From: a virus
Virus record (IMG/VR): IMGVR_UViG_3300045988_060630
Location: 1 to 18,852 of that record
Reading direction: 5' to 3' (one strand)
DNA: 18,852 nt
This document shows, piece by piece, positions 4,202-18,852 of the stretch; within the stretch, counting starts at the first letter, position 1, and each line of letters opens with the position of its first letter. The translations under genes and the position numbers were made by a program. The notes beneath the pieces are model-generated. The model worked only from the letters and a program-made list of their open reading frames with translations. It was not told where the DNA came from and did no database searches.

Positions 4202-4229
4202 AAAAGAGCCTTCCCAATCGGGAAAGCTC
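4195..4229 (-). terminator. Rho-independent terminator on the minus strand (may also stop + strand readthrough)
   Basis: Stem 4206-4215/4220-4229 (10 bp, one mismatch, loop aatc). On the minus strand it is followed by TTTTTTATTTT (complement of 4195-4205). On the + strand no T-run follows directly. Confidence 0.65.
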
Positions 4230-4348: not shown

Positions 4349-4354
4349 AAGTTT

Positions 4355-4383
4355 ATCATATCATACTTGCTTTATTTTGTCAA
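4355..4383 (-). promoter_or_regulatory. Near-consensus sigma-A promoter reading leftward (TTGACA-17-TGaTATGAT)
   Basis: On the minus strand the -35 TTGACA is the complement of 4378-4383, the spacer is 17 nt, TG is at 4363-4362, and the -10 TATGAT is the complement of 4355-4360. Confidence 0.7.
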
Positions 4384-4395
4384 GTATGATATACT
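4367..4395 (+). promoter_or_regulatory. Promoter for the structural (late) operon, extended -10 type
   Basis: TTGCTT (4367-4372), 17-nt spacer, TG (4387-4388), TATACT (4390-4395), 27 nt upstream of the ATG at 4423. It overlaps the leftward promoter within a 12-bp perfect inverted repeat (4358-4369/4381-4392). Confidence 0.6.
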
Positions 4396-4422
4396 TTGTT
4401 TAAAAATTGAAAGGAGAGGGCT

Positions 4423-4713
4423 ATGACCTCACAAGAATGCCTAGCAGTGCTAGACGCTGCAATGGCAAAAGTCGGAAACGATGAAGAAATTGAGAGCCTA
4501 ACGGCTGACTTGATTGACATCAAGGCTTTTGTCGGAGAAGTTGACACAGTTGTCTCAGTCTTGAATGAAGACGTTGAGCGCCTAAACTTGAAAAACGGTA
4601 ACTTACGTTCAGCTAATAACGAACTTTACCGTCGTTTAGGACAGCAAGATGAAATCATGAAACAAGCACAAGAAGACATGAGCGTAGTATCAGCAATCAA
4701 TGCTGTTATTTAA
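4423..4713 (+). CDS. Putative scaffolding protein (96 aa, acidic, helical)
   Basis: Strong SD (AAAGGAGAGG). It is the first gene of the structural operon, upstream of the capsid gene, and its size and helical/acidic character resemble phi29 gp7. The call rests on position and composition. Confidence 0.55.
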   Translation: MTSQECLAVLDAAMAKVGNDEEIESLTADLIDIKAFVGEVDTVVSVLNEDVERLNLKNGNLRSANNELYRRLGQQDEIMKQAQEDMSVVSAINAVI

Positions 4714-4730
4714 TAGAAAGGAAAAAGAAG

Positions 4731-4955
4731 ATGAAACCATTTTCAAAATCAATTAACTGGTATCCTAACAACGCACTAGACGCACTCAAGGACGAACCAG
4801 AGACAGTCGCAGAAGTTACACCGCCAGCAGTTATGCTTGCTGACACACCAGCGCAGGAAGTTCCAAATTATCCAGCGCAAGCCCCAGCAAGTGAAGTTGA
4901 GGGCGTAGAAATGAATATTGACCACGAAAACATCGTAGAAGAGGGAGAAGAATAA
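4731..4955 (+). CDS. Hypothetical highly acidic Pro/Ala-rich protein (74 aa)
   Basis: I count 16 Asp+Glu against 3 Lys and no Arg. There is a weak AGGA SD, and the stop lies 1 nt before the capsid ATG. Confidence 0.55.
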   Translation: MKPFSKSINWYPNNALDALKDEPETVAEVTPPAVMLADTPAQEVPNYPAQAPASEVEGVEMNIDHENIVEEGEE

Positions 4956-4956
4956 C

Positions 4957-6054
4957 ATGGCTAATAAAATTACCACTTTTTTATCAGGTCAAACGGGCAA
5001 ACAAGTCTCAAACATTGACCTATTGAACTCTATCCGCACCCGTGCCAGTGCTGACTATCAGGCGGATATTCCTGTACTTGAGGGCGCACGCATTAACCAC
5101 GCAACAGTCCCATATCAGGATTTTCAAAAGCATGCCAACGAGTTTTTCACAGCTCTTGTAAACCGCATTGGCTCTACAGTTATTAAAGCCCTTACTTATG
5201 AAAATCCGCTTGCTATTTTCAAGTCTGAAACTTTTGAGTTCGGGGACACCTTGCAAGAAATCTATGTACACCCAGCGGAAAAGAAAACCTATGACGCAAA
5301 ATCAGACGTTTCTCCGTTTAAGTTCGCTGATACAGACATCGAAGTCTTTTATCACACTTTGAACAATGAAAACTACTATGAGCGTACTTTTGAACGTGCT
5401 TGGATTCAGAAAGCCTTTGTTTCTGACATGGCGTTTGATGAGTTTGTGGACAAAATGTTTACATCATTGCTTTCATCCGACACGCTGGACGAGTACCAAG
5501 CGGTTAAAGGCGTACTTGAGAAATCACTTGCAGAAGTCAGCTATACTGACCTTAAAGGCAAGGCTAAGAAAATCACGGTGGCAGGTACGAAGATTGACGA
5601 AAACAAACAAGACTTTGTTGTAGACTTTAACCAGTCCCTAATCAACTTGTCTAAACGTTTCACAATCCCAAGCCGTACAACGTTTAACAATCCAGTAGGC
5701 GTGCCAAACATGACGGCAATCGAAGACCAGTATCTGGTTATCTCCGCAGAATTTTCTACACATCTTGACATGCTTTTGGCTAACGCCTTTAACATGGATA
5801 AAGCCAGCGTACTTGCTCGCACTATCGTAGTAGATGATTTTGAAAAATTCACGGGAGAGGGTGCAAACAATGGACGTAAGCCAGTTGCTTTCCTTATCTC
5901 AGCAAAATCTATCATTAACAAAGACAAGTTGGTACACATGGAAGCAATCCGCAACCCTCGCAACATGACCTATAATTATTTCTATCATCATCACTACATG
6001 ACCAGTCTTTCACTTTTTGAAAACATTCATTTCTGGTATGTTGAGGAAGCCTAA
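4957..6054 (+). CDS. Major capsid (head) protein
   Basis: 365-aa ORF with an AGGGAG SD, between the scaffold-like gene and the portal gene, and followed by a GC-rich terminator, which is typical for the most abundantly expressed late gene. The position matches Cp-1 orf9. Confidence 0.8.
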   Translation: MANKITTFLSGQTGKQVSNIDLLNSIRTRASADYQADIPVLEGARINHATVPYQDFQKHANEFFTALVNRIGSTVIKALTYENPLAIFKSETFEFGDTLQEIYVHPAEKKTYDAKSDVSPFKFADTDIEVFYHTLNNENYYERTFERAWIQKAFVSDMAFDEFVDKMFTSLLSSDTLDEYQAVKGVLEKSLAEVSYTDLKGKAKKITVAGTKIDENKQDFVVDFNQSLINLSKRFTIPSRTTFNNPVGVPNMTAIEDQYLVISAEFSTHLDMLLANAFNMDKASVLARTIVVDDFEKFTGEGANNGRKPVAFLISAKSIINKDKLVHMEAIRNPRNMTYNYFYHHHYMTSLSLFENIHFWYVEEA

Positions 6055-6066
6055 AGGCTGACCAAG

Positions 6067-6093
6067 GGCGGGCAATAGCCCGCCTATTTTATT
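6067..6093 (+). terminator. Rho-independent terminator after the capsid gene
   Basis: 7-bp all-G/C stem ggcgggc (6067-6073) / gcccgcc (6078-6084), loop aata, followed by tattttatt. Confidence 0.8.
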
Positions 6094-6110
6094 AAGTGAA
6101 AGGGGACTAA

Positions 6111-7124
6111 ATGAGTTACAAGAATTACAAGCGACATCTGGGCAAGATTGAGCTAAACAAAGAAACCGTAGAGCGTAACCGTCTAGCCTTTTTTGAGTTT
6201 TATTTCAATTATTTCTACAATATCGTGGTCAACTATTTCACATGGGAGGGTTTGCCTAACGATATTGACGAGTTATTTATAGAGAAAAAGCTGATACAAA
6301 ATGGACATGTGGCTTTCTTTCATGATGACACTTTTGGCTTTATGGCCCAAGGTGGAACAAGAGGGGAACGCTTAAACCATTATGACCAGCCTTTGACCTA
6401 TCAACCCGTCAACGCTTCCAGTATGAACTATTTTAAACAAATGGAAATCGCTTATACTGAAAACGATTTTAGGGTTATTTCAGAACTACACGAAGCCAAT
6501 CCAGACAAGATTAAAAGACCGTGTATTGTGATTCCTAACAATAATTTCTATGAGCCTTACATCGGCTATTTAGAGTTATTTTGTGAGAAATTGGCAGATA
6601 TTGAGCTGACAATTCAGCTAAACAGGAACGCACAAATCACACCGTATTTCATCTTTGCGGACAATACAAACGTGTTATCAATGAAGAATATCTTTAATAA
6701 GATAGCCAATTTTGAACCCGTTGTATATCTGAACAAGCAGAAAGACCAAGACGGACAAGACAGCTTTAAGCAGTTATCTGACTATATACAAGTTTTCAGA
6801 ACGGACGCACCGTTTTTACTTGACAAGTTGCATGATGAAAAGTTACGAGTGATGAACCAGTTGCTGACCTTTATTGGTATCAACAACAACCCAAGCGATA
6901 AAAAAGAGCGTCTGGTAGTTTCCGAAGCTATTTCTAATAATGGGGTTATCTCAGCGAACATTGAAGTAGGCTGGAAGTCAAGGCGAAAATTCGTTGAGCT
7001 TATCAATAAATGCTACGGGCTAGAAATCAGCGTGAAACCAGCGGAGACTATTCAGCAGTTTAACCTTGATAAAGTGGCGCTAGACCTTGCAGAAAAGGAG
7101 GGAACAATCATTGACCCAGAATAA
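6111..7124 (+). CDS. Portal / head-tail connector (upper collar) protein, phi29 gp10-like
   Basis: Collinear motif matches to phi29 gp10 as I recall it: F.WEGLP..I...F.EK.L...G.V.FF.D, QLNRNAQITP (phi29 NQNAQKTP), VFRTDAP...DKL...K, N.L.TF.GI.NN...KKER.V..E. Size is 337 aa against 309 aa. Confidence 0.9.
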   Translation: MSYKNYKRHLGKIELNKETVERNRLAFFEFYFNYFYNIVVNYFTWEGLPNDIDELFIEKKLIQNGHVAFFHDDTFGFMAQGGTRGERLNHYDQPLTYQPVNASSMNYFKQMEIAYTENDFRVISELHEANPDKIKRPCIVIPNNNFYEPYIGYLELFCEKLADIELTIQLNRNAQITPYFIFADNTNVLSMKNIFNKIANFEPVVYLNKQKDQDGQDSFKQLSDYIQVFRTDAPFLLDKLHDEKLRVMNQLLTFIGINNNPSDKKERLVVSEAISNNGVISANIEVGWKSRRKFVELINKCYGLEISVKPAETIQQFNLDKVALDLAEKEGTIIDPE

Positions 7125-7758
7125 CACCACAGCAACGATTGCAACCTTTTTAAAATCCAGATATAGAAATCCCGTGACGGGACGGCTGGATGGCTTGGCA
7201 GTTGATGAAAACGGCGACTTTCTGCACTATAACACAATTATAGACCAGACCTATAACGAGTTATTTAAAGACATGGAGCTAGTCAACGGAGTTTCAGACA
7301 ATTTCAAGAAAGAGTTTTGCAAACATTTCTACAACAGGGAAATCGGACTTGAGACTTTCGCACGCTTCCAGATAGCCCTTGAAGAAGTTCTAAACAACGA
7401 GTGTTTCAATCTGTTTAAATACCTCGCAGAAATCAGGAACAAGGCTATTAAGGACTTAAACCAGTCTATGAATATTGACACGGTAGGCAACCAGAAAGCA
7501 GACGGGCAAGCCTTACAGATAGCGAACACTACACCACAAGAGCGCAAAGAAATTGTATTTACTGAGCGCTACGGGGTTATAGAATACGCTGACAATCTGG
7601 TAGAGAACCACCAGAAAAACAACGCAGACACAAAAAGCAACGTCTCAGGGTGGAGCGGTTCAAGCCTTGCCGAACGCTTACAAAATAATGCTGAACTGAA
7701 AGACATTCAATTTCAGATTTTCAACATTTGTGATAAGCTGTTTTTACAAGTCTTTTAG
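7111..7758 (+). CDS. Putative lower collar / head-tail adaptor protein
   Basis: The track starts at TTG 7087, but the in-frame TTG at 7111 sits 9 nt after a strong SD (AAAGGAGGG, 7094-7102). It lies directly downstream of the portal gene, as phi29 gene 11 does. The function is inferred from position. Confidence 0.5.
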   Translation: MTQNNTTATIATFLKSRYRNPVTGRLDGLAVDENGDFLHYNTIIDQTYNELFKDMELVNGVSDNFKKEFCKHFYNREIGLETFARFQIALEEVLNNECFNLFKYLAEIRNKAIKDLNQSMNIDTVGNQKADGQALQIANTTPQERKEIVFTERYGVIEYADNLVENHQKNNADTKSNVSGWSGSSLAERLQNNAELKDIQFQIFNICDKLFLQVF

Positions 7759-7770
7759 AAAGGGTCATAG

Positions 7771-8355
7771 ATGAAAGATTTATCAAACGCTAAAATACTA
7801 AAATATGATAGTATGTTAGAAGAAATCACGCTTTTCAGCTTTCAGGATTTTGCTTATAGCGATGATGGTTACTATTATATCCAGTCAAATAGCAGACGCT
7901 TGGGCGACCTTGCTAAGTTGTGGATAAAACTAAAGCCTATTTCTTATCATTATGAAAGCATTGAAAATGAAACTTTTTGGACTATCAGAAAGAGCTATCA
8001 GCCATTACAATCAACTAAGGCGCTTCTATTCATTCGCTTTAAGATTGTGGGAGCTTATTATAGTTTTGAAAGGTTGACAAGCAAAAGCAAGCTGAAAGGC
8101 TTTGCTAGAGTGATTGACGACAACAACTATTTCTCACGGATTCCACTTGTGAACGAGGTGGTGCATTGGGATAACGGAGTTATCGTAACCCCTAACTACC
8201 AGATGAACGTCACAGGGCTAAAAGAAACCCGTGTAGAGATTGATGGTCAGCAACTCCTTGAAGATTGGTCAACATTTAAAATCAATGTAACCAATGGTAG
8301 AAAAGGAGTACCTCGCACCATCATGGCAGCAGAAAGAGGACATGAAACATTATGA
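7771..8355 (+). CDS. Hypothetical virion/morphogenesis protein (194 aa)
   Basis: ORF in the structural operon with an AAAGGG SD. Its stop overlaps the next start (ATGA). Confidence 0.7.
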   Translation: MKDLSNAKILKYDSMLEEITLFSFQDFAYSDDGYYYIQSNSRRLGDLAKLWIKLKPISYHYESIENETFWTIRKSYQPLQSTKALLFIRFKIVGAYYSFERLTSKSKLKGFARVIDDNNYFSRIPLVNEVVHWDNGVIVTPNYQMNVTGLKETRVEIDGQQLLEDWSTFKINVTNGRKGVPRTIMAAERGHETL

Positions 8356-8672
8356 TAATTATCAACTTGTCCGAGACAACGGACACGCTACAAATCGAAG
8401 TCATGGGACACGGAGATGATAAAGACCAGTCTTGCGCCCGTGTTTCTACCGTTTGCGATTGTATTTATTTAGGATTTAAAGACCAGCTAGAGAAATACAA
8501 GAAGCACAACGGCTACACACTTTTAATTGCTGATAAGAAAAAGCTAGGACGTAAAGGTATTTTACTTTTGCGCTATCTTGAGTACATCGAAGCATTAAAA
8601 GAACTCTATCCAAACTCAATCAAAATCGAAAACAAAACAAAAGGAGCAAAAGAAGATGGCAAAGACAACTAA
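8352..8672 (+). CDS. Prp-family (DUF464, peptidase C108-like) cysteine protease; probable capsid maturation protease
   Basis: The 106-aa protein aligns by eye with Staphylococcus Prp, also about 106 aa. Shared features: MI.... N-terminus, GH(G/A) with His20, D.SCARVS with Cys28 (Prp: D.VCAGAS), and C-terminal L.L....L..L.EL.YPN.I.I. The position corresponds to Cp-1 orf13, which was experimentally shown to be a protease. Confidence 0.7.
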   Translation: MIIINLSETTDTLQIEVMGHGDDKDQSCARVSTVCDCIYLGFKDQLEKYKKHNGYTLLIADKKKLGRKGILLLRYLEYIEALKELYPNSIKIENKTKGAKEDGKDN

Positions 8673-9621
8673 ACTTGTACGGGGTATTTACTCATGGATT
8701 AAGTTCCAGAAACATCAGGGTATTGAGAGCTTAACTATTGAGGGTAAGCAGGCGCTTGCAGATATTTCTCAAGATAAAAACGGAGACGCTAACCTAGTTT
8801 TAAATGCTGACAAGGACAAAGTGAACACAGTAGCATCAAACGTGCCTTATCTTGCTGTTTCTCATACAACCACAGGGACAGACCCGAACCAAGAGAAAAC
8901 AGCAACTATCAGCCATGACTTGACACAATTTAACCTTGGAAGTGATGGCTTGATTGACGTCTCAAAAACTGAAACATCTATCACACTATACACTACTAAA
9001 ATTACTGAAAAAATCAATGAAGTAGTAAATAGCGCAGTTACAACAAAAGAAACTGAAATCAAAGACTATGTAAATACAACGCTTTCAACAAAAGAAGAAA
9101 CATTGAAAGATTTTGTAAGAGACCAAACAGCGGGAGCGGTTGGGGTATCTCCTACTTATGTAGCTGATGAAATCCGCAAGGTTAAAGAAGAGTTAGAAGC
9201 TGAAATCAATGCACATGCTGGAAGCGGTTCAACTAATCAAGATTTACATTTAGTCCACTGGGCTAAAGGTTCAAGCAGTGGACATAATAGTGCAAAATAT
9301 GCTGTTCATGGCGTTTCAAACCGTGTATTGATAAGCGTTTCAATTTCATATTATGTAGATAATAAAACAGTTATTGAACATCTTTTCGTACCATCTGGAC
9401 AAGTTACTGATTATGTTAAAAACGGTATAGGTATTGAATGTTCTAACGCGTCAGATGGTAATGATTTAACTATTACATTGCCAGTAAAAACTGATAGTTT
9501 CCAAGTTGACCTTATCACTTACGCTTATCCGTTTGGTGGCTTTACAGACGTAAACGCAGACGTGACACCAGACCCATCTTATACGCCAGTCCGTGAAAAC
9601 ACTGCACCAGTGCCACAATAA
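8656..9621 (+). CDS. Putative fibre/appendage structural protein (321 aa)
   Basis: AAAGGAG SD. The central region has 15-residue repeats (TKETEIKDYVNTTLS / TKEETLKDFVRDQTA), which are helical, followed by a beta-rich C-terminal domain. No enzymatic motifs. Confidence 0.6.
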   Translation: MAKTTKLVRGIYSWIKFQKHQGIESLTIEGKQALADISQDKNGDANLVLNADKDKVNTVASNVPYLAVSHTTTGTDPNQEKTATISHDLTQFNLGSDGLIDVSKTETSITLYTTKITEKINEVVNSAVTTKETEIKDYVNTTLSTKEETLKDFVRDQTAGAVGVSPTYVADEIRKVKEELEAEINAHAGSGSTNQDLHLVHWAKGSSSGHNSAKYAVHGVSNRVLISVSISYYVDNKTVIEHLFVPSGQVTDYVKNGIGIECSNASDGNDLTITLPVKTDSFQVDLITYAYPFGGFTDVNADVTPDPSYTPVRENTAPVPQ

Positions 9622-9637
9622 GAAAGGATTTTAACAC

Positions 9638-10414
9638 ATGAATCCAGAAGAATTTAAAGATGAATTTTTCCGAGCTTATCGGGGGCGCTATTCTTCTTAC
9701 TGGGTGGAGCGTTGGGGGCTTATCCCCTCAATCCCTACCAGCTTTGATAATGCCAATTCTATTTACGAGCTTTTGGCTTGGCTACAGCGTGCCTTTAAGC
9801 AACTACTAGATGACTTTGTGGCTTTGGAAAGCGAACTAGAAGATTATAAGAACGCTTTGACAGAATTGTTGGAGCAACTTATTCCCTTACTTATCCGCCG
9901 TTACATGGAAAGCAAGGAAGCGGACGACTGGTTTAACAAAAAAGCAGACATCTACTATAGCAAGATTATCAAGCCTTACATTGACGCAGAGATTGCTAAA
10001 GTCAATAAGAAAATCGCTGAACTTGAAAAGAAAGTAGATGATGAAGTTAAGCGCCTTGATGGACGGATTGACGCTTTAAACGACAAGCTAGAAAAAGAAA
10101 TCAAGAAGCTTGACGACAGAATCACAAAGGAAGTTGAAACCTTAAACAACCGTATCACAGCGGAAAACAACGTGCTCAAGGAGCGAATCGAAGCCCTAGA
10201 AAATGCTAACACAGGTTTGCAAAACGCTTTGCGTAAAATCATTGAAAACCTTGAGGGTTCAGGCGCTTGGACTGGTGGCTTGACTGGTGGATTTAACCAA
10301 GGGCGCAACATCGCAACAGGTAACATCAACGTATTCGGTGGAACACCAGACGGTAACAGCTTTATCCGAACCAACAACGGAAGCACAGAAAACGACCTCG
10401 CTGGAGGTATCTAA
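9638..10414 (+). CDS. Putative coiled-coil tail fibre / collar appendage protein (258 aa)
   Basis: There is a long charged helical segment with 11-residue periodicity (EIKKLDDRITK / EVETLNNRITA / ENNVLKERIEA) and a Gly-rich C-terminus (GSGAWTGGLTGGFNQG...GGTPDG). Confidence 0.6.
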   Translation: MNPEEFKDEFFRAYRGRYSSYWVERWGLIPSIPTSFDNANSIYELLAWLQRAFKQLLDDFVALESELEDYKNALTELLEQLIPLLIRRYMESKEADDWFNKKADIYYSKIIKPYIDAEIAKVNKKIAELEKKVDDEVKRLDGRIDALNDKLEKEIKKLDDRITKEVETLNNRITAENNVLKERIEALENANTGLQNALRKIIENLEGSGAWTGGLTGGFNQGRNIATGNINVFGGTPDGNSFIRTNNGSTENDLAGGI

Positions 10415-11166
10415 TGGCTTTACACTTAAAATTTTCAACCTCAACAAATGCCAACGTGGAAAACTTTGGGACAGGTGTACCACCTTGGACGCAAGCATAC
10501 GCCAACGCTTGGCAGTTCTCAGGAGACACAGACTATGGTTATATGACCAATGGCAATACGACCTATATACAGTACGGGCAAAATGACCCGTCTGTATGGG
10601 CGTCAATGCGTTTCTGGTGCGAAAGCGTGGAAATCCTAGAAGAGACAACCAACGCAGACAACTCTATCACAGCTAAAATCAGAGTAAAAGCGCTTTTTTG
10701 GTGGTCAAAACGGGTCAGCTCAAATGCTGGGTATCGGGTAGAGTATGACATCAGGGTAAACGGTCAGACTATCTGGACGTTTAGCGGTTACACAACCGAT
10801 GAAGTGATTAAAAATGACGAGAGTTCTCAAGAGTTTACCGTCACTATACCAGCCGAGGGCAGTTCCTCTGCCTCCGCCTTAAATATCAGCGTCAGCTATC
10901 CAGACGGGCAATACTCAAACAATTCATTTTATGTGGGTATGTTTCTATACAATCCTAATAAGAAGAGTATCAAGCCGTGGGCTATCCGTAAGAGCGGAAT
11001 CTTTAAGACCTTAAACCGTCCATCGGGTATCTTCCAACAGAGAAAAGGCAGTTGGAAAGACATCAGCGCCCAACCCTCAAACGCAGTCGGGCAAGCAGTC
11101 AGCGCACCGCACAGCATGAGAAAGTCGGGTCAATGGATAGGACAAGGACAGATAGGACAACAATAA
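10414..11166 (+). CDS. Putative tail/receptor-binding structural protein (250 aa)
   Basis: TAATG stop-start overlap with the upstream gene, with GGAGG upstream. The sequence is Trp/Tyr/Asn-rich and beta-type. The C-terminus has three degenerate RK(S)G.W motifs. A terminator follows. Confidence 0.6.
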   Translation: MALHLKFSTSTNANVENFGTGVPPWTQAYANAWQFSGDTDYGYMTNGNTTYIQYGQNDPSVWASMRFWCESVEILEETTNADNSITAKIRVKALFWWSKRVSSNAGYRVEYDIRVNGQTIWTFSGYTTDEVIKNDESSQEFTVTIPAEGSSSASALNISVSYPDGQYSNNSFYVGMFLYNPNKKSIKPWAIRKSGIFKTLNRPSGIFQQRKGSWKDISAQPSNAVGQAVSAPHSMRKSGQWIGQGQIGQQ

Positions 11167-11167
11167 G

Positions 11168-11192
11168 GGAGGGTTTCAGCCCTCCTATTTTT
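11168..11192 (+). terminator. Rho-independent terminator
   Basis: Stem ggaggg (11168-11173) / ccctcc (11180-11185), loop tttcag, followed by tattttt. Confidence 0.7.
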
Positions 11193-11204
11193 AAAGGAGA
11201 GACT

Positions 11205-12695
11205 ATGCAAGAATCTACTAAAATATGGCTTTATGCAAAAAGCCCGTTTAAAAATGACTATGCTAATGTACTCAATTTTGAGACAAAAGAAGCTATGGAG
11301 GATTTTTTCACGAAGAAGAATCCGCATATAGAAATTGTATACGAGTATGACAAGTTTCAATATACACAAAGAAACGGGTCAATTGTAGTTTCTGGACGGG
11401 TAGAGAAATATGAAAATGTAACGTACATGAGATTTATTAACAACGGTAGAACCTACTATGCCTTTGTCTTTGACGTGCTTTATATCAATGAAGACGCTAC
11501 ACGCATTATATATGAAGTGGACGTATGGAACACCTACCAGCACGAACTAAAGGCGCTTAACGTGATTGGACAGGTGGAGCAACAGACATTGCCTAATGAG
11601 TTGTGGGCGCTGAAAGACAGTCAGCAAGGTTTTTCAGTTGGGACGAAGTACGCTACACGGGCTGGAGAGGTTGGGATAGATACAGAGTGGCTTGTAGTCG
11701 TGGCAAAGCCTACTATAAAGATGACAACCAAGGCAAACAGACCTGTAAATATGAGTTATTCAGGTATGCAGAAAACGTTTAAATACTTTTTTATCCCTGT
11801 AAATTTGAAAAGTGGAGCGTCCAGACCGTTTATTTTCCAAGGCAAAAAGTATGACAGCTTTTACCTTGAAAACCTTTATAAGCACCTTTTCGGGTTGAAT
11901 CAAGACGGCAGTAGCACCGTAAACCAGATTGTAAACATGTATTTAAGCCGAGATATTGGGGTAAAATACAAGGAAACAACCGATGGCGACAAGACCTATA
12001 TAGAAATCTTGTCTAACATCACAGGAAGCGTTGCAGAAATTGGGCGAAAAAACACTCGAAACTATCGCACATCAGGAAGCAGTTCAAGCGGTGGAAGTGG
12101 TAGCACCAACGAAGAGGGCGACACATCGACAGAGGAAAGCCGTGTTAGGTTAGTAACCCGAATTATTAAAAAGCTAGTGCCAGACGCTACGGCGGAGGGT
12201 ATCGCTGGAATTATCGGAAACTTTTCAGCAGAAAGCAACGTCACAGCCAAGAAATACGAAGCGGACTATGCTACAGGCTACGAGTACGAGAAAATTGAAT
12301 CAGAGCCAACAGCAGAAAACCTCATGGGAAGCTGGGGCGCTTTTGCTAGTCTCTACTCTATCAGCTTGAATGAAGCTGGATATAGAGGGAGTGACGGTAA
12401 GCACTGGATAGGTATTGGGATAGGTCAGTGGACGGGTCCAAGGGCAGAGGAGCTTTTGAACTTTGCAAGAAGTCAAGGGAAATCATTGTGGGACTTTAAC
12501 CTACAATTTCAATTCATGAACCAAGAAAGCAGAGCGGACACGTTTAGACGTGTAGCAAGTTCTACAGCAAGCGCCAGCACTAATGCAAGCGACTTTATGA
12601 ACAACTGGGAGGGGGTAGCCTATAAGGAAGCGGAACGCATAGAGCAGGCAAACGCATGGCTATCTACTATTCAAGACGAACTACAGAAAGGGTAA
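11205..12695 (+). CDS. Tail knob protein, N-terminal half (phi29 gp9 N-domain-like) fused to a phage tail lysozyme domain
   Basis: The true start is the ATG at 11205 (AAAGGAGA SD); the 11052 extension crosses the terminator. The N-terminus (SPFKNDYANV..., YMRF.N..RTYYAFV........T.I.YEVDVWNT) matches my recollection of phi29 gp9. A Ser/Gly linker (SGSSSSGGSGS) follows. The C-terminus (IAGIIGNFSAES ... GIGIGQWTGPRAEELLNFA ... QFQFM) has the phi29 gp13-type tail lysozyme signature. Confidence 0.8.
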   Translation: MQESTKIWLYAKSPFKNDYANVLNFETKEAMEDFFTKKNPHIEIVYEYDKFQYTQRNGSIVVSGRVEKYENVTYMRFINNGRTYYAFVFDVLYINEDATRIIYEVDVWNTYQHELKALNVIGQVEQQTLPNELWALKDSQQGFSVGTKYATRAGEVGIDTEWLVVVAKPTIKMTTKANRPVNMSYSGMQKTFKYFFIPVNLKSGASRPFIFQGKKYDSFYLENLYKHLFGLNQDGSSTVNQIVNMYLSRDIGVKYKETTDGDKTYIEILSNITGSVAEIGRKNTRNYRTSGSSSSGGSGSTNEEGDTSTEESRVRLVTRIIKKLVPDATAEGIAGIIGNFSAESNVTAKKYEADYATGYEYEKIESEPTAENLMGSWGAFASLYSISLNEAGYRGSDGKHWIGIGIGQWTGPRAEELLNFARSQGKSLWDFNLQFQFMNQESRADTFRRVASSTASASTNASDFMNNWEGVAYKEAERIEQANAWLSTIQDELQKG

Positions 12696-12698
12696 ACA

Positions 12699-14537
12699 AT
12701 GGCAGAAGCAACAGAAACGCTAAAAGCACTAAATGAAATCAAATCAAGGGTGGGTACTAGCGTAGGTAACGGGCAATGTTACGGGCTAGTGGCGCTATAT
12801 TCTCAGCTTTTGGGAGGTTGTGACATCGGGGGAGGTATCAACACCCCGAACCCGAACGGTAACGGCAGACAAGCCAGCGGAAGCGATACGCAGAGGGGTA
12901 TGAGTGCCAGTAACATCGGGGGCGATTATGACTGGGAAGCCTTGGGCTGGAAAGTCCGCTTTGACCCGTCTTGGGCTGATTTAAGAGTAGGCTGTATTGT
13001 GAACTATATCCCGTCAGGTAGCAATATCTGGGGGCATACGGCTGTTATATCAGCGGTCAACGGCTCAAGCTATGACGTTATAGAGCAGAATTATGCTTGG
13101 AGTGGTTACACAACAGAAAGAACAGGTATAGACACGGTTGCCAATATTGAAAGCATTATCTACCCTCCCGAAGTCGTGGCAGGTGGCGATATTGGAGAGA
13201 TAACAGGTAACACAGGAGATAGACAGCTAGGAAACGGGGACTACTCAAAAACAGCCTTTGACGTTGAAGCCTTGCTGATTGAAGTTGACGGATTTTTTGA
13301 CTATCGACCTAATGTGTACGAAGTGCCAAACCTCCTAAAAATCGCTTATGACCAGATACAAGAGGGGCTACGCTCATATATGGGTAAAGACGACCTAGAA
13401 ATAGAAGTACAGCTATTAAATAGTGAGTTCACAGAGATAGAGCTTTATGATATTTACGGGAATAGTTATGTGTATCAACCGCAGTATTTACCAAGAACGA
13501 TTGACGAAGCCCACAAGTATAAAGTTATTGTAAGCGGTAGCCTTGGCGATAGTAACCAAGTACATATTAACTTTTTAGAATATAACAACGCTAACAATAT
13601 CAGCTACGCAGACCAGAACATTTTGGAAAATCTCGGTACGGGAACATGGGCAGAACATAACCCAGAGCATTTCAAATACGGCTTGAATGACGTTACAGGA
13701 AAAAGCGTTGCAATCCTAAATGACGCAGAAGCCAGCTATATTCAGAGTCATAAGAATCAGATGGAGCATACACAGCTTACATTTAAAGAGAATCGGGACA
13801 TGCTGAAACAGAGTGTAGACCTTTCTAATAAACAAGTTGCTACAGCCAACTCACAAGCCAGCTACAACGCACAGTTTGCCGTAGACAGCGCCAACATTAA
13901 CCAATGGACAGAGGGCGCAAGCGGAATCTTAAACGTGGCTGGAAATCTCCTAACAGGTAACTTTGGGGGCGCACTTGGTGGGCTTGCGTCAGGTGGTATG
14001 AAAGTTTTCAACGCTAACCGTGATTATAATGATAAAGTGGTACAGCAGGGGTTTACCAGCGAAAACAACGCTTTGAAATCTCAATCAAACGCACTCGCTA
14101 ACATGAAATCTAAGATAGCACTAGACCAATCCATCAGAGCCTACAACGCAACGATGGCAGACCTACAAAATCAGCCTATCAGCGTCCAACAAATTGGGAA
14201 TGACCTTGCTTTCCAATCAGGGAACAGACTAACAGACGTTTATTGGAAAGTCTCCCTAGCTCAAAAAGAAATCATGGGACGGGCTAACGAGTACATCAAG
14301 TGCTACGGGGTGCTTGTCAACTGGTTCACTAATGACGCTTTAAGTGTAATGAGGTCAAGAAAGCGGTTTAATTATATCAAGATGATTAACGTTAACCTTG
14401 GAACACTAAGAGCGAACCAGTCGCACATGAACGCTATTCAGGCTATTTTTCAATCAGGTGTAAGGATATGGAACTATTCAGTCAATAAAGCAGACAGCAT
14501 TTTGTTTGATATTCAGAAAAACAACCCGAATTTTTAA
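12699..14537 (+). CDS. Tail knob protein, C-terminal half, with an N-terminal CHAP peptidoglycan hydrolase domain
   Basis: CHAP signature: GNGQCYGLV (Cys at 12777-12779), IWGHTAVI (His at 13035-13037), VIEQN. The C-terminal ~250 aa has a Gly-rich hydrophobic loop and ends ...FNYIKMINVN...IFQSGVRIWN, which resembles the phi29 gp9 C-terminal region. It is in the same frame as the upstream ORF. Confidence 0.8.
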   Translation: MAEATETLKALNEIKSRVGTSVGNGQCYGLVALYSQLLGGCDIGGGINTPNPNGNGRQASGSDTQRGMSASNIGGDYDWEALGWKVRFDPSWADLRVGCIVNYIPSGSNIWGHTAVISAVNGSSYDVIEQNYAWSGYTTERTGIDTVANIESIIYPPEVVAGGDIGEITGNTGDRQLGNGDYSKTAFDVEALLIEVDGFFDYRPNVYEVPNLLKIAYDQIQEGLRSYMGKDDLEIEVQLLNSEFTEIELYDIYGNSYVYQPQYLPRTIDEAHKYKVIVSGSLGDSNQVHINFLEYNNANNISYADQNILENLGTGTWAEHNPEHFKYGLNDVTGKSVAILNDAEASYIQSHKNQMEHTQLTFKENRDMLKQSVDLSNKQVATANSQASYNAQFAVDSANINQWTEGASGILNVAGNLLTGNFGGALGGLASGGMKVFNANRDYNDKVVQQGFTSENNALKSQSNALANMKSKIALDQSIRAYNATMADLQNQPISVQQIGNDLAFQSGNRLTDVYWKVSLAQKEIMGRANEYIKCYGVLVNWFTNDALSVMRSRKRFNYIKMINVNLGTLRANQSHMNAIQAIFQSGVRIWNYSVNKADSILFDIQKNNPNF

Positions 14538-14542
14538 AAGTA

Positions 14543-14551
14543 TGATATAAT
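14543..14551 (+). promoter_or_regulatory. Extended -10 promoter (TGaTATAAT) upstream of the packaging/lysis genes
   Basis: TG at 14543-14544 and TATAAT at 14546-14551, with no recognisable -35. It lies within the 11-mer aagtatgatat (14538-14548), which also occurs at 4382-4392 (+) and 4358-4368 (-). Confidence 0.6.
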
Positions 14552-14574
14552 GAAGTAGAAAGGAGTGGTTTTCT

Positions 14575-15657
14575 ATCGAAGAACAAGAAAAATGGTACAA
14601 TCCGCAGAAAATGCTATCTTATAACCAGTATCTTAATTTTGTAATTGGTGGGCGTGGGATTGGGAAAACCTTTGCACTCAAGAAATACCTATTTAAGCGT
14701 TTCATAGACAAAGGGGAGCAATTCATCTACCTAAGACGGAACAAGTCAGAGCTTGACCGAATAGACAAGGACAAGTTTTTTACTACGGAATTGCTTAAGC
14801 AAGTCTTTACAAATTTTGAGGTAATAGACAGTGACGCTAGTAAAATTCATACTAAGATTGTTTTCAGAGCTGACAACATGGAAGAAGAGGAAAATATACT
14901 TGTGTTGTCTTCTACTAAGATAATACTTAACGGGAAAATCGTTTGCTATCTCAAGAGCCTTTCTACATGGGTAGACTTGAAAGGGTCAGAGTATGATGAG
15001 GTAATGAGTATTTTATACGATGAAGTTCTAATAGACGTTACCAGTAAAAAGAGGTATCTCGATAACGAGGTAGAAGCGTTATTAAACTTTATCTTCTCAG
15101 TTTTCCGAAGACGTGACGGGTGTCATGCCTATCTACTATCAAATGCAAGTAATTTCAACAACCCCTATTTTGCCTTTCTTAAATTTTATGACGATAACGG
15201 CAAGCGGTTCTATAATTTGAAACAGTATGCTACGCTTATAGAGTTCCCCCCTCATTCAGCCTTTCAAACAGAGGAAGAAAAAGAGAGCGGATTCTTTAAG
15301 CTATTGAGTAAGTCCAGTATTTACGAGAGCGTAGCTAATAACGAATTTCAGATTAAGAACGATAAAAATATAGCGAAGATTAAAGGCTTGAAGTCTAGAC
15401 TGTATAGTTTCTATTGTGACGGTACTTTCTTAACAGGGTACTATATCGACAATATGGTTTATATCGCTAAAGGCTTTGACAAGAATTTGACCGCTTACTG
15501 TTTAGAAGTGGAGCAAGTGGAGGACGGTTTTGTTTACTTGAATAAGGCAAGCGCACTAGGTAAGACCCTGAGAAGTCTTTACCTTAAGAATATGTTTATT
15601 TATGAAGATTTAGAAACTAAAAATAAATTTATAGAGGTTATCAATCATGTTATATAA
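14575..15657 (+). CDS. DNA encapsidation (packaging) ATPase, phi29 gp16-like; probable ATC start
   Basis: Walker A is GGRGIGKT and Walker B-like is ILYDEV. The frame is open from 14554. The translated upstream segment [10 protein letters not shown] matches the phi29 gp16 N-terminus ([10 protein letters not shown] as I recall it), so translation must begin upstream of the ATG at 14611. The only near-cognate start is ATC at 14575, 9 nt after the AAAGGAG SD. The 3' end and the function are secure. Confidence 0.85.
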
Positions 15658-16051
15658 TATTATGTTAGAAGTTGCTAAAGGCGACTATATCACAATTCTC
15701 TTTGCTTTGATTCTGTTTGACTTTATCACAGGCTTTTTAAAGGCTTGGAAATGGAAAGTGACAGACAGCTGGACAGGGTTAAAAGGGGTTATCAAACATA
15801 CCCTAACGTTCATTTTTTACTACTTTGTAGCGGTATTTTTAACTTATATTCACGCTATGGCAGTCGGTCAGATTTTGCTAGTTATCATTAACTTATACTA
15901 TGCACTTTCAATTATGGAAAATCTCGCTGTTATGGGTGTCTTTATCCCTAAATTTATGACGGCTAGAGTACAGGAAGAATTGCAGAAATACACAGCACAA
16001 CTAGACGCAGGGAAAGACCTGCTAGAAGAATTTAAAGGAGATAAGAATTAA
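15647..16051 (+). CDS. Holin (134 aa, three predicted TM segments, charged C-tail)
   Basis: It lies directly upstream of the endolysin and overlaps it (TAATG). Hydrophobic segments are [34 protein letters not shown] and [25 protein letters not shown]. The tail is acidic/basic. Size and position match the Cp-1 holin. Confidence 0.85.
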
Positions 16052-17076
16052 TGGTTAAAAAGAATGATTTATTTATTGATGTTTCAAGTCACAACGGCTA
16101 CGATATAACAGGTATCTTGGAGCAGATGGGAACAACTAACACGATTGTTAAAATCTCAGAAAGTACGACCTATTTAAACCCTTGCTTGTCTGCTCAAGTG
16201 GAGCAGTCAAACCCTATCGGATTCTATCACTTTGCCCGTTTTGGTGGTGACGTAGCAGAAGCAGAAGCAGAAGCACGCTTTTTCCTTGATAACGTACCTA
16301 CACAAGTTAAATACCTTGTATTGGACTACGAAGACGACCCAAGCGGAGACGCACAGGCAAACACTAACGCCTGCTTGCGCTTTATGCAGATGATTGCAGA
16401 CGCTGGATATAAACCTATTTATTATAGTTATAAACCTTTCACACTTGAAAACGTGGACTATCAGCAGATTTTAGCGCAATTCCCTAATTCTCTATGGATT
16501 GCTGGATATGGCTTAAACGATGGTACAGCTAACTTTGAATATTTCCCAAGCATGGACGGTATACGCTGGTGGCAATACTCTAGCAATCCGTTTGACAAGA
16601 ATATTGTACTATTGGACGATGAAGAAGATAATGTAAGCAGTAAAAACACTATAAAAAACCTTAACACCGTAGCCAACGAGGTCATTCAAGGGCTTTGGGG
16701 CAACGGTCAAGAGCGTTATGACAGCTTGACAAATGCAGGTTATGACCCTCAAGCAGTTCAAGACAAAGTGAATGAAATCTTAAACGCTGGAGAAGTTGCA
16801 GACCTTAACACCGTAGCCAACGAGGTCATTCAAGGGCTTTGGGGCAACGGTCAAGAGCGTTATGACAGCTTGACAAATGCAGGTTATGACCCTCAAGCAG
16901 TTCAAGACAAAGTGAATGAAATCTTAAACGCTGGAGAAGTTACAGACCTTACCACCGTAGCCAACGAAGTCATTCAAGGGCTTTGGGGCAACGGTCAAGA
17001 GCGTTATGACAGCTTGGCAAATGCAGGTTATGACCCTCAAGCAGTTCAAGACAAAGTAAATGAAATACTTTCATAA
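16051..17076 (+). CDS. cpl7: Endolysin: GH25 muramidase plus three CW_7 cell-wall-binding repeats (Cpl-7 type)
   Basis: The N-terminal ~190 aa ([29 protein letters not shown]...YHFARF...LVLDYEDDP...WWQYSS) is the Cpl-1/Cpl-7 GH25 catalytic module as I recall it. The C-terminus has three 48-aa repeats (LNTVANEVIQGLWGNGQERYDSLTNAGYDPQAVQDKVNEIL), the Cpl-7 CW_7 architecture, and is not made of choline-binding repeats. Confidence 0.95.
   Translation: MVKKNDLFIDVSSHNGYDITGILEQMGTTNTIVKISESTTYLNPCLSAQVEQSNPIGFYHFARFGGDVAEAEAEARFFLDNVPTQVKYLVLDYEDDPSGDAQANTNACLRFMQMIADAGYKPIYYSYKPFTLENVDYQQILAQFPNSLWIAGYGLNDGTANFEYFPSMDGIRWWQYSSNPFDKNIVLLDDEEDNVSSKNTIKNLNTVANEVIQGLWGNGQERYDSLTNAGYDPQAVQDKVNEILNAGEVADLNTVANEVIQGLWGNGQERYDSLTNAGYDPQAVQDKVNEILNAGEVTDLTTVANEVIQGLWGNGQERYDSLANAGYDPQAVQDKVNEILS
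16658..17073 (+). repeat. Tandem 144-bp direct repeats (2.9 copies) encoding the CW_7 modules
   Basis: The copies are 16658-16801, 16802-16945 and 16946-17073. By direct comparison, copies 1 and 2 differ at one base (g/a at 16798 vs 16942). Copy 3 has four substitutions and then diverges in its last ~10 nt. Confidence 0.95.
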
Positions 17077-17084
17077 CAAATAAA

Positions 17085-17115
17085 AGCTAGTAGAAAATTT
17101 CTACTAGCTGTTTTT
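17085..17115. terminator. Bidirectional rho-independent terminator between the convergent operons
   Basis: Perfect 10-bp stem agctagtaga (17085-17094) / tctactagct (17100-17109) with loop aaatt, flanked by an A-run on the left and gttttt on the right. The stop codon of the minus-strand ORF (17104-17106) lies in the right arm. Confidence 0.85.
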
Positions 17116-17520
17116 ATATTCTGCTATGATTTTATAAGCGTCCTCATCTGGATTGTCCAGAGCAAGGGAGCAGATGGCAGACAGAACGCTATTCATCTGA
17201 TTGTATTTCTGTAAATAGTGATTTTCAAGCTGTTTATAGTTGCTGATGTGTTTTTCATATCCAGCTAGTGAAAAAGAGTGATGTAGGTTTATCAGTTGCT
17301 GGGTAAGCCTTGCCTTGTCTAAGCCGTCAGGGTATGCTTTCATCATTTCTGAAAGCGTTTCAAGATAGCTGGTAAATGAATGTATAACCAGTTCATCAAG
17401 CGTTACCATACCTCGAACGCTGGAAGCGGTCAGGCTTGCAATCTTTTGCCCGTGTAGTCTTAAACTGTTTTCAAATTGTAAGGCTATTTCTTGCCCCTCT
17501 AAGCGTGTTTTGTCTTCCAT
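17104..17520 (-). CDS. Hypothetical early protein (138 aa, predicted all-helical)
   Basis: Minus-strand ORF with a GGGGG SD 8 nt upstream. It is the last gene of the right-end inward-reading operon. Confidence 0.7.
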   Translation of the reverse strand: MEDKTRLEGQEIALQFENSLRLHGQKIASLTASSVRGMVTLDELVIHSFTSYLETLSEMMKAYPDGLDKARLTQQLINLHHSFSLAGYEKHISNYKQLENHYLQKYNQMNSVLSAICSLALDNPDEDAYKIIAEYKNS

Positions 17521-17524
17521 AGTA

Positions 17525-17767
17525 TCAACCCCCTACATTCTCTAAATAAGCGACAAGGCGCAAGATAGAAGCCGTGTTGCTATCGTTTTCTCGCTTTAAC
17601 TTCGTAATGATGCTTTGATGTTGCTCAAGCTGTTTTTGTTGCTTGAAAATGGTATAGGTCAGTAGTGACATAATCACTAGAAAAACCAGTATAGCAAGAT
17701 TGCAAGAAGCGAACCACCAGAACCAGAAACGTCCCTTTTTATTTAATTTGTTATATGAATTTTTCAT
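17525..17767 (-). CDS. Small membrane protein (80 aa): basic N-terminus, one TM helix, coiled-coil-like tail
   Basis: The sequence has KKGRFWFWWFASCNLAILVFLVIMSLLTYTIF followed by KQQKQLEQHQSIITKLKREND. The architecture and right-end early location resemble phi29 p16.7, but this protein is shorter. Confidence 0.65.
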   Translation of the reverse strand: MKNSYNKLNKKGRFWFWWFASCNLAILVFLVIMSLLTYTIFKQQKQLEQHQSIITKLKRENDSNTASILRLVAYLENVGG

Positions 17768-17771
17768 TTTA

Positions 17772-18047
17772 CTAAAACCCTAGTTTATATAATTCCCTTT
17801 CTATTGATAAATAAATAACCTCAAAAGAACCTTTATAAACCTTAGAACCATCACTCAAATATTGAGGATAAACATCAATTAAATTATAATCGTGAATATA
17901 AAAATCTTCTATTTCTTCGATTTTATCCTTAAAATACTGTTTTATAAGTTCTAATGAAGAATAAGGGCAATAATCAAAATGATATAATTTAACTATCTTT
18001 CTAACCCTTTCAATTTCACTAGGAAAAATCTTTTCTAAACAATCCAT
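17772..18047 (-). CDS. Hypothetical early protein (91 aa; track start 18083 is less likely)
   Basis: The in-frame ATG at 18047 follows GGAAGGGAG and lies directly after the upstream stop (18049-18051). Starting at 18083 would overlap the upstream gene by 35 nt. The region is very AT-rich. Confidence 0.6.
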   Translation of the reverse strand: MDCLEKIFPSEIERVRKIVKLYHFDYCPYSSLELIKQYFKDKIEEIEDFYIHDYNLIDVYPQYLSDGSKVYKGSFEVIYLSIERELYKLGF

Positions 18048-18048
18048 A

Positions 18049-18318
18049 CTAATATCGCTCCCTTCCTTGTATAAAACGTTCATAAGCTGATTTTAAGCAA
18101 TAATGACTATATTTTGAAAATTTAAGGTCTTTGATATTCTCAAATATTATCAACTCTTTTTTATTTTTGCTTTCAAACAAATTTTCAGAATATTCTGAAA
18201 AACCTTTAATAAGATAGTATTTTCTTTCTGCTTCCAGCCTTTCATCTGAAAATGTTTTTAAGCATTGAATCTTGAGAGGCGTTACCCCCTCAAGAATAAT
18301 CTGAAATTTAGCTATCAT
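18049..18318 (-). CDS. Hypothetical early protein (89 aa)
   Basis: Minus-strand ORF with an AAGAGGG SD 8 nt upstream, in the AT-rich region. No motifs recognised. Confidence 0.65.
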   Translation of the reverse strand: MIAKFQIILEGVTPLKIQCLKTFSDERLEAERKYYLIKGFSEYSENLFESKNKKELIIFENIKDLKFSKYSHYCLKSAYERFIQGRERY

Positions 18319-18319
18319 T

Positions 18320-18538
18320 CTATAAACCCTCTTTACTTAAATACTCATATTTTCCGTCTTTAAAGACTAAAAGTTTAGTTGGATTTAGCTTAAACCCTAA
18401 ATCACATTTAAGCCTTGCCCTTATTGTATTATAGTCTCTAGCTGATGATTTTGCAAATGATAGCTTAATAACTCTAACATAAGCCTTATAAGGTTCGTCC
18501 CTATAAACGTAATAGAATTTGAAAAAATATGTTTCCAT
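18320..18538 (-). CDS. Hypothetical early protein (72 aa, Tyr/Lys-rich)
   Basis: Minus-strand ORF with an AAAGGG SD, in the AT-rich region. No motifs recognised. Confidence 0.65.
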   Translation of the reverse strand: METYFFKFYYVYRDEPYKAYVRVIKLSFAKSSARDYNTIRARLKCDLGFKLNPTKLLVFKDGKYEYLSKEGL

Positions 18539-18552
18539 ACTCTACCCTTTCT

Positions 18553-18801
18553 TTAATCATTGATATAAGCAACAAGAGCGTAAGCGTCAAGCCAATTATC
18601 AATAGAACCGCTACGAGCCAATAAATGATAGATATGTTCTGGTGTTTTACCTTTATTTAATTCAAAAAATTGTTTTAAAACGTTTGGTGTAACACTTGCC
18701 AAGGCTAACAAAACTCTTGGCGATTGGCTATCAAGTGGATAATCTTTAATAATACCCATTGCAAACTCTTGAAACTCTTTTAATTGTGTCATATATTTCA
18801 T
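18553..18801 (-). CDS. Hypothetical early protein (82 aa); start codon inside the right ITR
   Basis: The ATG (complement of 18799-18801) and the GAGG SD are ITR-encoded and identical to those of the leftmost gene. Confidence 0.7.
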   Translation of the reverse strand: MKYMTQLKEFQEFAMGIIKDYPLDSQSPRVLLALASVTPNVLKQFFELNKGKTPEHIYHLLARSGSIDNWLDAYALVAYIND

Positions 18802-18852
18802 TTTTCTTACCTCTTTATCTTTCTGATACCATTATAGCATTTCTTGAAATGC
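18798..18852. repeat. Right inverted terminal repeat (perfect 55-bp copy)
   Basis: Reverse complement of nt 1-55. It contains the mirrored promoter, SD and ATG of the rightmost minus-strand ORF. Confidence 0.95.
18831..18839 (-). promoter_or_regulatory. Extended -10 promoter (TGcTATAAT) inside the right ITR
   Basis: Mirror image of 14-22, upstream of the minus-strand ORF that starts at 18801. Confidence 0.6.

Follow-up and report, generated by a model that had tools for sequence, protein, structure and literature searches.

A gp9-like tail knob encoded by two adjacent genes in a Cp-1-like pneumococcal phage, and the enzyme cassette at its break

The locus described here raises the question of what a tail-knob gene in two pieces represents. 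In the window, by which we mean the whole stretch of 18,852 nucleotides (nt) analysed here (IMG/VR virus record IMGVR_UViG_3300045988_060630, positions 1 to 18,852), two open reading frames (ORFs), termed A and B, encode the N- and C-terminal gp9-like parts of a knob and follow one another in the same frame with a single TAA between them. The original prediction, made from the sequence alone, offered three explanations, namely a genuine split with separate initiation of the second ORF, low-level readthrough of the stop codon, and a nonsense mutation or sequencing error in a single gene. The analysis presented here makes it very probable that A and B are two real, adjacent and conserved genes which arose by fission of a lysin-carrying knob gene, and that the frame they share is incidental.

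The junction in the window and in its relatives

The two ORFs and the elements of their junction are as follows (window coordinates).

11205-12695, plus strand: ORF A, 496 residues, consisting of a gp9-like knob N-terminal half, a Ser/Gly linker and a C-terminal tail lysozyme
12685-12692, plus strand: Shine-Dalgarno (SD) sequence of ORF B, AGAAAGGG, -9.7 kcal/mol, 6 nt before the ATG
12693-12695, plus strand: TAA, stop codon of ORF A, read directly (TAA, TAG or TGA across 78 split loci)
12696-12698, plus strand: ACA, 3-nt spacer, read directly
12699-14537, plus strand: ORF B, 612 residues, consisting of an N-terminal CHAP peptidase, a linker and a gp9-like knob C-terminal half

The junction reads CAG AAA GGG TAA ACA ATG GCA, with GGG at 12690-12692 and the ATG of B at 12699-12701, and the distance between the two starts (12699 - 11205 = 1494 = 3 x 498) places A and B in one frame, bearing out the description of same-frame ORFs separated by one TAA. 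The computed masses are 56.2 kDa for A and 67.4 kDa for B, and a hypothetical readthrough product would have 1110 residues and 123.8 kDa. The accompanying estimate that neighbouring ORFs share a frame by chance about one time in three also stands, and the frame relation is not kept in relatives.

The region has approximately 90% DNA identity to the Streptococcus phages Cp-7, SOCP and Cp-1 (Cepunavirus), in which orthologs of A and B with 97-98% protein identity (orf17/orf18 plus orf19 in Cp-1, ORF18 plus ORF19 in Cp-7 and SOCP) occupy the same place as in the window, between an appendage-like gene and the terminase gene. The junction is GGG TAA ACA ATG in Cp-1 and SOCP and GGG TAA GAC ATG in Cp-7, and the Cp-7 and SOCP records hold two 'tail protein' genes separated by a stop codon, 3 nt and ATG. 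For SOCP, ORF18 has been described as a 59-kDa product and ORF19 as a 612-residue product of 67.5 kDa with the ribosome-binding site AAAGGGTAAACAATG (PMC4334900). Since it is annotated in Cp-1, Cp-7 and SOCP, the two-gene arrangement as such is already known. In Cp-1, orf17 has been named 'Tail protein N' (PMC4840434), a label consistent with the statement in the original prediction that two Cp-1 ORFs match the N- and C-terminal parts of the phi29 protein. The 1996 Cp-1 record (L001; NC_001825 / Z47794) differs from the window, in which both genes are intact, in that A is broken into orf17 and orf18 and orf19 is truncated; because SOCP, Cp-7 and the window are intact, these frame disruptions are probably sequencing errors. 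In the same record the start of orf19 lies about 27 codons late, with loss of the CHAP catalytic Cys.

Every junction was read in a set of 79 IMG/VR loci and several Logan/ENA contigs that carry a relative of A, and the 80 informative ones are distributed as follows.

3-nt spacer, in frame: 63 loci of 80
2-nt spacer: 7 loci of 80
1-nt spacer: 3 loci of 80
11-nt spacer: 4 loci of 80
13-nt spacer: 1 locus of 80
fused, one ORF: 2 loci of 80

Fifteen of the 78 split loci are out of frame, as is the further locus L088 with a spacer of 5 nt. The stop codon of A is TAA, TAG or TGA, with a tandem TGA TAA in L060-62, and the 3-nt spacer takes at least 11 sequences (ACA, GAC, ACT, AAC, GAT, AAG, GAA, AAT, ATT, GCA, TAA). 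On a neighbour-joining (NJ) tree of 75 loci, built from 1200 nt flanking the junction, Fitch parsimony requires the spacer length to have changed at least 10 times and the frame relation at least 7 times. Because spacers and stop codons vary and the frame has changed repeatedly, the frame is not under selection; the shared frame is a by-product of the 3-nt spacer and as such without function. The coincidence of frame is real, yet to judge from these sequences it carries no signal.

What does persist is the arrangement of stop codon, SD and ATG, which is present in Cp-1, Cp-7, SOCP and approximately 75 relatives from metagenomes, with protein identities as low as 42%. Not only are these three elements conserved, but both halves are conserved in length and sequence, so that the locus does not look like a pseudogene. 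More than 100 clusters of B (formed at 90% identity, P0191-P0310) have 87-91% identity and are each exactly 612 residues long; these clusters lie mostly on contigs of 18-19.6 kb, and the sequences suggest that uncultured Cp-1-like phages form a very large population.

The SD of the second ORF had been taken as weak (AAGGG), but it is in fact AGAAAGGG, which overlaps the last codons of A (Q K G) and can pair over 8 nt with the 16S 3' end. Its pairing energy, calculated with the textbook anti-SD sequence, falls within the range of the other genes in the window, three of which (at 4731, 7771 and 9638) are served by the same sequence, so that this SD is typical of the genome rather than weak. In every split relative the ATG of B is preceded, at 5-10 nt, by a purine-rich SD, and in all split loci the stop-to-start distance is 1-13 nt with the SD inside the coding end of A; the C-terminal residues of A vary (KG, KV, KVG, KGS, KGG, IGG) while the SD stays. 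Between A and B, a consensus pattern scan of the plus strand turned up neither a promoter-like nor a terminator-like site. We infer from the sequence that the two genes are co-transcribed, and they are probably also translationally coupled. The explanation by a genuine split with a separately initiated second ORF has held up: three cultured phages and some 75 relatives from metagenomes have the split, in every case with an SD.

The knob fold and the inserted enzyme cassette

Along the two ORFs, the following domains and linkers were delimited.

11217-11993, plus strand: gp9 N-half, A residues 5-263, including the Caud_tail_N beta-sandwich at residues 5-114
12066-12140, plus strand: linker 1, of Ser/Gly/acidic low complexity, A residues ~288-312, sequence TSGSSSSGGSGSTNEEGDTSTEE
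12186-12665, plus strand: Phage_lysozyme2 (PF18013), A residues 328-487, Pfam E 1.4e-21
12765-13091, plus strand: CHAP (PF05257), B residues 23-131, Pfam, with motifs GNGQC27YG, GH113T and EQNY
13215-13301, plus strand: linker 3, Gly-rich and of low confidence, B residues 173-201, between CHAP and the knob C-half
13311-14534, plus strand: gp9 C-half, B residues ~205-612, containing the phi29_gp9_C match at residues 461-592
13911-14009, plus strand: glycine-zipper-like hydrophobic stretch, B residues 405-437, sequence GILNVAGNLLTGNFGGALGGLASGG

The gp9-like N- and C-terminal regions that had been described for A and B are confirmed, while the lysozyme and CHAP domains had been overlooked. In Pfam, Caud_tail_N (PF16838) matches A residues 5-114 (E 2.5e-12) and phi29_gp9_C (PF20934) matches B residues 461-592 (E 2e-14), and A residues 5-263 align with residues 9-272 of phi29 gp9 (5fb4; E 3e-10). 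The whole-family profile has a match to phi29 gp9 with a probability of 99.9% and E 2e-35, covering gp9 residues 8-596; in this alignment gp9 up to about residue 285 matches the N part and gp9 from about 294 (to about 596) matches the C part, and the intervening cassette of about 390-420 residues, inserted at gp9 ~285-293, has no gp9 counterpart. The order within the cassette is linker-lysozyme-linker-CHAP-linker, with the gene break between both enzymes. Since the break falls between enzymes inserted into the fold, the gp9 fold itself is not cut, let alone at an arbitrary point, a detail absent from the original prediction; the fold is here nevertheless encoded on two ORFs, unlike that of single-chain gp9-type knobs. 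Linker 1 separates the knob N-half from the lysozyme, and the position of linker 3 (B residues 173-201) is the split site in another locus, L089.

The two enzyme domains retain their active-site motifs. E343-S344 of the lysozyme domain is invariant in 17 homologs, and the CHAP domain aligns with the streptococcal lysin Ly7917 (5d74; E 4e-14) with C27, H113 and the EQN motif in place; a model of B also matches CHAP structures (Foldseek E 1.6e-9). With these intact motifs, the lysozyme and CHAP domains are likely candidates for virion-associated peptidoglycan hydrolases. Both are closest to tail lysins of streptococcal siphophages, in which lysozyme and CHAP stand in the same order, and this similarity together with the shared order suggests such tail lysins as the source of the cassette. 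In the window, no peptidoglycan-hydrolase gene was found besides A, B and the endolysin gene, nor was a separate tail lysin gene.

Predicted structures are consistent with this layout. The AlphaFold2 (AF2) model of the fused homolog P0041, with a predicted local distance difference test (pLDDT) score of 73.9, has confident domains and low-confidence linkers at residues 297-316, 512-530 and 692-711, of which the first (pLDDT <50) is the counterpart of linker 1 and the second (pLDDT <50) is the equivalent of the split site in the window. Over its entire chain this model matches phi29 gp9 (Foldseek E 2e-21, TMt 0.68-0.76), and Foldseek also matches it to the Andhra and C1 knobs and to CHAP lysins; its lysozyme domain has a weak match to the lysozyme domain of phi29 gp13 (3csr; TMt 0.62, E 0.015). 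The model of B alone (pLDDT 74.2) matches 5fb5 (E 6e-7) and 8egs_Y (E 3e-4) and covers gp9 only partly, with a TMt of about 0.3, as is expected from half a protomer. In the model of B, residues 405-437 are flanked by long helices of about 65 residues each (352-418 and 422-489), and they have a weak match to the C19orf12 glycine-zipper family of Pfam. A membrane-active hydrophobic L loop has been described in phi29 gp9 (PMC6542822), and by analogy residues 405-437 are likely to be its counterpart.

The beginning of A also deserves attention, as the automatic ORF list opens it at TTG 11052. Two features precede the ATG at 11205.

11167-11186, plus strand: terminator-like G+C hairpin followed by a T-run, with an 8-bp stem of which 5 pairs are GC, then ATTTTT
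11193-11199, plus strand: SD of ORF A, AAAGGAG, -9.1 kcal/mol against the anti-SD

ATG 11205 was preferred as the start of A on the strength of this SD, of the hairpin before it, which sits between the upstream gene (10414-11166) and A, of the lengths and N-termini of homologs (27 full-length clusters at 42-98% identity, all of 488-513 residues and with the same first residues), and of the alignment to phi29 gp9, which opens at A residue 5. The 520-residue start annotated for ORF18 in Cp-7 (11695-13257) and SOCP (11515-13077) overlaps the upstream gene, and it would read through the hairpin (window 11167-11186, within the extension 11052-11204). Judged by sequence comparison, the 496-residue start at 11205 is a better fit to the homolog clusters than the 520-residue one. 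Further upstream of the knob region, positions 9638-10414 encode a 258-residue protein with a long coiled coil, whose N-terminal segment is conserved and common to the loci L083, L085 and L004; this protein may belong to the appendage or collar.

Origin of the pair and competing explanations

The diversity of fused forms was taken from an exhaustive HMMER search with B against representative proteins. Beyond the Cp-1 group, the nearest clusters consist of single chains 1077-1168 residues long (P0041-P0046, P0049), with which B aligns from its residue ~4-11 to their residue ~490-550, and single-chain homologs altogether (P0041-P0049, P0052, P0053, L083/84/86) span 1039-1302 residues. Their layout in Pfam is Caud_tail_N, then Phage_lysozyme2 or Glucosaminidase, then a CHAP, M23-like or other domain, then phi29_gp9_C. 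The uncultured single-chain knobs P0041-P0049 and L083-L086 (1077-1302 residues), which come from metagenomes only, have the domain order and synteny of the window with 32-45% identity to A and B, and differ in being encoded by one ORF, in which a disordered linker of some 35 residues occupies the place where the window is split. P0041, for example, has 42% identity to A (A residues 5-493 against 17-505) and 45% to B, a hydrophilic linker of about 36 residues between the A-like and B-like parts, and a gene neighbourhood of the same order as in the window; L083 and L084 encode a 1168-residue ORF with an equivalent linker. A seeming third split position in L086 (191 + 966 residues; 2751-6250) was rejected, the break being a run of N in the scaffold of an L083-type fused knob.

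Comparison of the sequences makes fission of such a single-chain gene the most likely origin of the pair. This direction is favoured by the fact that canonical knobs are single chains, by the position of fused forms, with two glycosidase types, on deeper branches, and by the linker of P0041, which is like those of L083 and P0044. In an NJ tree of concatenated A and B with the fused proteins (988 columns, 100 bootstraps, midpoint rooting), the split forms are nested among the fused ones. The suggestion that the split might be ancestral to the lineage is accordingly right for the Cp-1 clade and fails for the wider family, whose deeper relatives are single-chain, the split being derived. Several points weigh against the explanation by fission into two independently initiated genes. 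Its polarity rests on a weakly (midpoint) rooted NJ tree, and in that tree the fused P0041 and the split L004/L080 form a group (97% bootstrap) that is sister to L005 and the Cp-1 clade (93%), so that two fissions, or one fission and a re-fusion, are required. That two separate polypeptides are made, that their translation is coupled and in what stoichiometry they occur is something we infer, as is, by analogy, the packing of A with B in the knob; moreover, occasional non-programmed readthrough of the TAA may occur in the in-frame genome of the window.

The opposite direction of change, in which the two-gene state would be ancestral for lysin-bearing knobs and the forms of about 1100 residues would be secondary fusions, or in which the cassette was acquired in two pieces, appears unlikely, and it owes what weight it has to the weak rooting. 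It would account for the placement of P0041 within an otherwise split clade, and it is in line with the split knobs that occur in Gram-negative phi29-like phages too (PMC11476376) and with enzyme plus knob-C as a separate protein in several other lineages. Against it stand the single-chain canonical knobs (phi29, C1, Andhra) and the deeper fused forms of two glycosidase types, as well as the like linker that P0041, L083 and P0044 share at one place, for which retention is an easier explanation than repeated fusion, and the lysozyme2-CHAP order, which is that of single-chain tail lysins of streptococcal siphophages. It is likewise improbable that B is made independently of A, uncoupled and in unequal amounts, for instance from an internal promoter. 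Although B has its own full-strength SD and the Cp-1 record annotates -35/-10 signals and a start point, PL6, beside the junction (13078-13109), the true ATG of B comes before this start point, whose annotation relied on frame-shifted sequence; the pattern scan found no plus-strand sigma-70-like site near the junction in the window, and the clade-wide stop-to-start distance of 1-13 nt is typical of coupled pairs.

Programmed low-level readthrough of the TAA, giving a functional 1110-residue fusion beside the two chains, has much less in its favour and is very improbable. The window and 63 of the 78 split loci are in frame with one stop codon, and natural single-chain homologs indicate that a fused protein can work; however, 15 of the 78 have spacers of 1, 2, 11 or 13 nt and L088 one of 5 nt, the frame relation has changed at least seven times, and three loci possess a second in-frame stop codon (TGA TAA). 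Neither the stop codon nor the codon that follows it is constrained, and no conserved readthrough-promoting element was found among the split loci. UAA is the least leaky bacterial stop codon, which also counts against readthrough. The original prediction had proposed comparing the junction across related phages and named relatives in different frames or with larger gaps as evidence against readthrough; such relatives, as well as tandem stops, are what the comparison brought to light, which argues against readthrough as a selected feature. Frameshifting to fuse the out-of-frame relatives was considered and rejected, as spacers of 1, 2, 5, 11 and 13 nt have no common slippery motif. The third explanation, by which the TAA would stem from a recent nonsense mutation in a single gene or from faulty sequencing or assembly of it, might be thought plausible from the existence of single-chain homologs and from the frame disruptions that the 1996 Cp-1 record does hold elsewhere in these genes, but it is practically excluded: the stop codon, ATG and SD recur in Cp-1, Cp-7, SOCP and about 75 independent metagenomic contigs at 42-98% identity, and since the linker of about 35 residues of the fused forms is missing, a point change in a fused gene does not account for the junction.

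Other breaks were observed in the knob family. L088 (P0055, 30% identity to B; 2-2379) has a glucosaminidase-type upstream gene followed by a CHAP plus knob-C gene, with the junction TGA TTATT ATG, that is, a 5-nt gap and a different frame; its sequence suggests a separate fission event at the linker that corresponds topologically to the one broken in the window. L089 (504-3750) comprises a 658-residue gene (Caud_tail_N, Glucosaminidase and CHAP), a 22-nt gap and a 415-residue gene with gp9_C only, its break being at the CHAP/knob-C linker, one linker further than in the window. Proteins with M23 plus knob-C, CHAP plus knob-C, and knob-C only are also among the matches of the representative search, and Gram-negative phi29-like phages possess split knobs with immunoglobulin-like (Ig-like) inserts, for which AlphaFold3 (AF3) models of 6+6 assemblies have been presented (PMC11476376). 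Taken together, L088, L089, these other separate proteins and the Gram-negative split knobs suggest recurrent breaking of the knob gene at the insertion. A broader proposal, for which the chances seem evenly balanced, is that in phi29-like phages of streptococci and related Firmicutes the tail-tip lysin was built into the knob gene as an internal glycosidase-peptidase cassette, and that this gene was then repeatedly and independently cut at inter-domain linkers. The cuts would number at least three and involve two different linkers (Cp-1 clade, L088, L089 and possibly, as a separate case, L004/L080).

The proposed knob protomer and its significance

Under the explanation by gene fission, A and B would be co-transcribed, and a single tail-knob protomer of the phi29 gp9 type would be the joint product of the two genes. 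Their ancestor would have been a single-chain knob of about 1100 residues with a glycosidase-CHAP cassette at gp9 ~285-293, and the break would have occurred in the flexible linker between the enzymes, this linker being replaced by a stop codon, 1-13 nt and an ATG. Transcription of A and B would proceed from a promoter upstream of A, and ribosomes ending at the TAA would re-engage, or a fresh 30S subunit would bind AGAAAGGG, the start of B following 6 nt later, with coupling to the termination of A yielding near-equal amounts of both chains. Six A:B heterodimers would build the knob and display six lysozyme and six CHAP domains; phi29 gp9 is a hexamer (PMC6542822), and a 6:6 stoichiometry would follow by analogy. 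Again by analogy with phi29 gp9 (PMC6542822), the N-domain of A would sit against the lower collar, with the long helices and the hydrophobic loop (residues 405-437) coming from B. The lysozyme at the C-terminus of A and the CHAP domain at the N-terminus of B, on flexible tethers, would digest peptidoglycan during penetration, replacing the separate tip lysins of phi29 (gp13) and Andhra (gp10, GyH plus CHAP, two copies; PMC9710869); a role in cell-wall penetration is thereby suggested for both enzymes by comparison with these systems.

Comparison with known knobs places these features in context. The knobs of phi29 (gp9), Andhra (gp12) and C1 (gp12) (5FB4/5FB5, 8EGS, 4EO2) have the same fold as the A N-half plus the B C-half, sharing a tube-like beta-sandwich, long helices and probably a hydrophobic loop, and a hexamer would be expected here as well. 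They are single chains of 583-599 residues without enzyme domains, whereas in the window a cassette is inserted and the gene is cut inside it. The tip lysins phi29 gp13 (lysozyme plus M23), Andhra gp10 and P68 gp11 (GyH plus CHAP) have the same glycosidase-peptidase order as A and B (PMC9710869, PMC6542822) and presumably do the same job, local digestion of the wall; they are separate proteins plugged into the knob, two copies in Andhra, whereas in the window the enzymes belong covalently to the knob chains, with six of each expected. A parallel in gene organization is offered by Phanie (gp9 + gp10), Astrid and DU_PP_III, in which the N and C parts of gp9 lie on adjacent genes with extra domains at the break and for which a hexamer of heterodimers has been proposed (PMC11476376). 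These phages belong to an unrelated lineage and have Ig-like inserts instead of hydrolases, so the split is presumably independent.

The window carries perfect 55-nt inverted terminal repeats (1-55 and 18798-18852) and looks like a near-complete linear protein-primed genome, the repeats of which may be truncated relative to Cp-1; it also encodes a phi29-type polymerase, a major capsid protein, a connector, a gp16 ATPase and a Cpl-7-type endolysin. The latter (16051-17076) consists of GH25 and three CW_7 repeats, as in Cpl-7 and not as in the choline-binding Cpl-1 type, and despite this endolysin the window genome is equally close to Cp-1 and Cp-7.

With regard to recoding the result is negative, the locus being an ordinary adjacent gene pair that shares a frame by chance. 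There is a gain for annotation in the start of A at 11205 and in the recognition that the older Cp-1 ORF calls are frame-shifted. In the literature that was searched, no description was found of the lysin cassette of the knob, of single-chain Cp-1-type forms or of repeated fissions, an absence limited to that literature; these three aspects, based on sequence and predicted structure, are of modest interest. The natural series of single-chain knobs, knobs split at linker 2 and knobs split at linker 3 could be used for the study of gene fission in a structural virion protein. The Cp-1-type knob emerges as a carrier of lysins, its domains being likely virion-associated wall hydrolases of pneumococcal podophages, which could interest enzybiotic work beside the endolysins Cpl-1 and Cpl-7. 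If the proposal of repeated cuts is true, each cut would take an insert anchored at both ends and leave two terminal enzymes, each on a single tether, in a 6+6 knob, fission would have been selected to free the reach of the enzymes or to ease folding and assembly, and Cp-1-type virions would carry twelve hydrolase domains on their knob, not a two-copy tip lysin.

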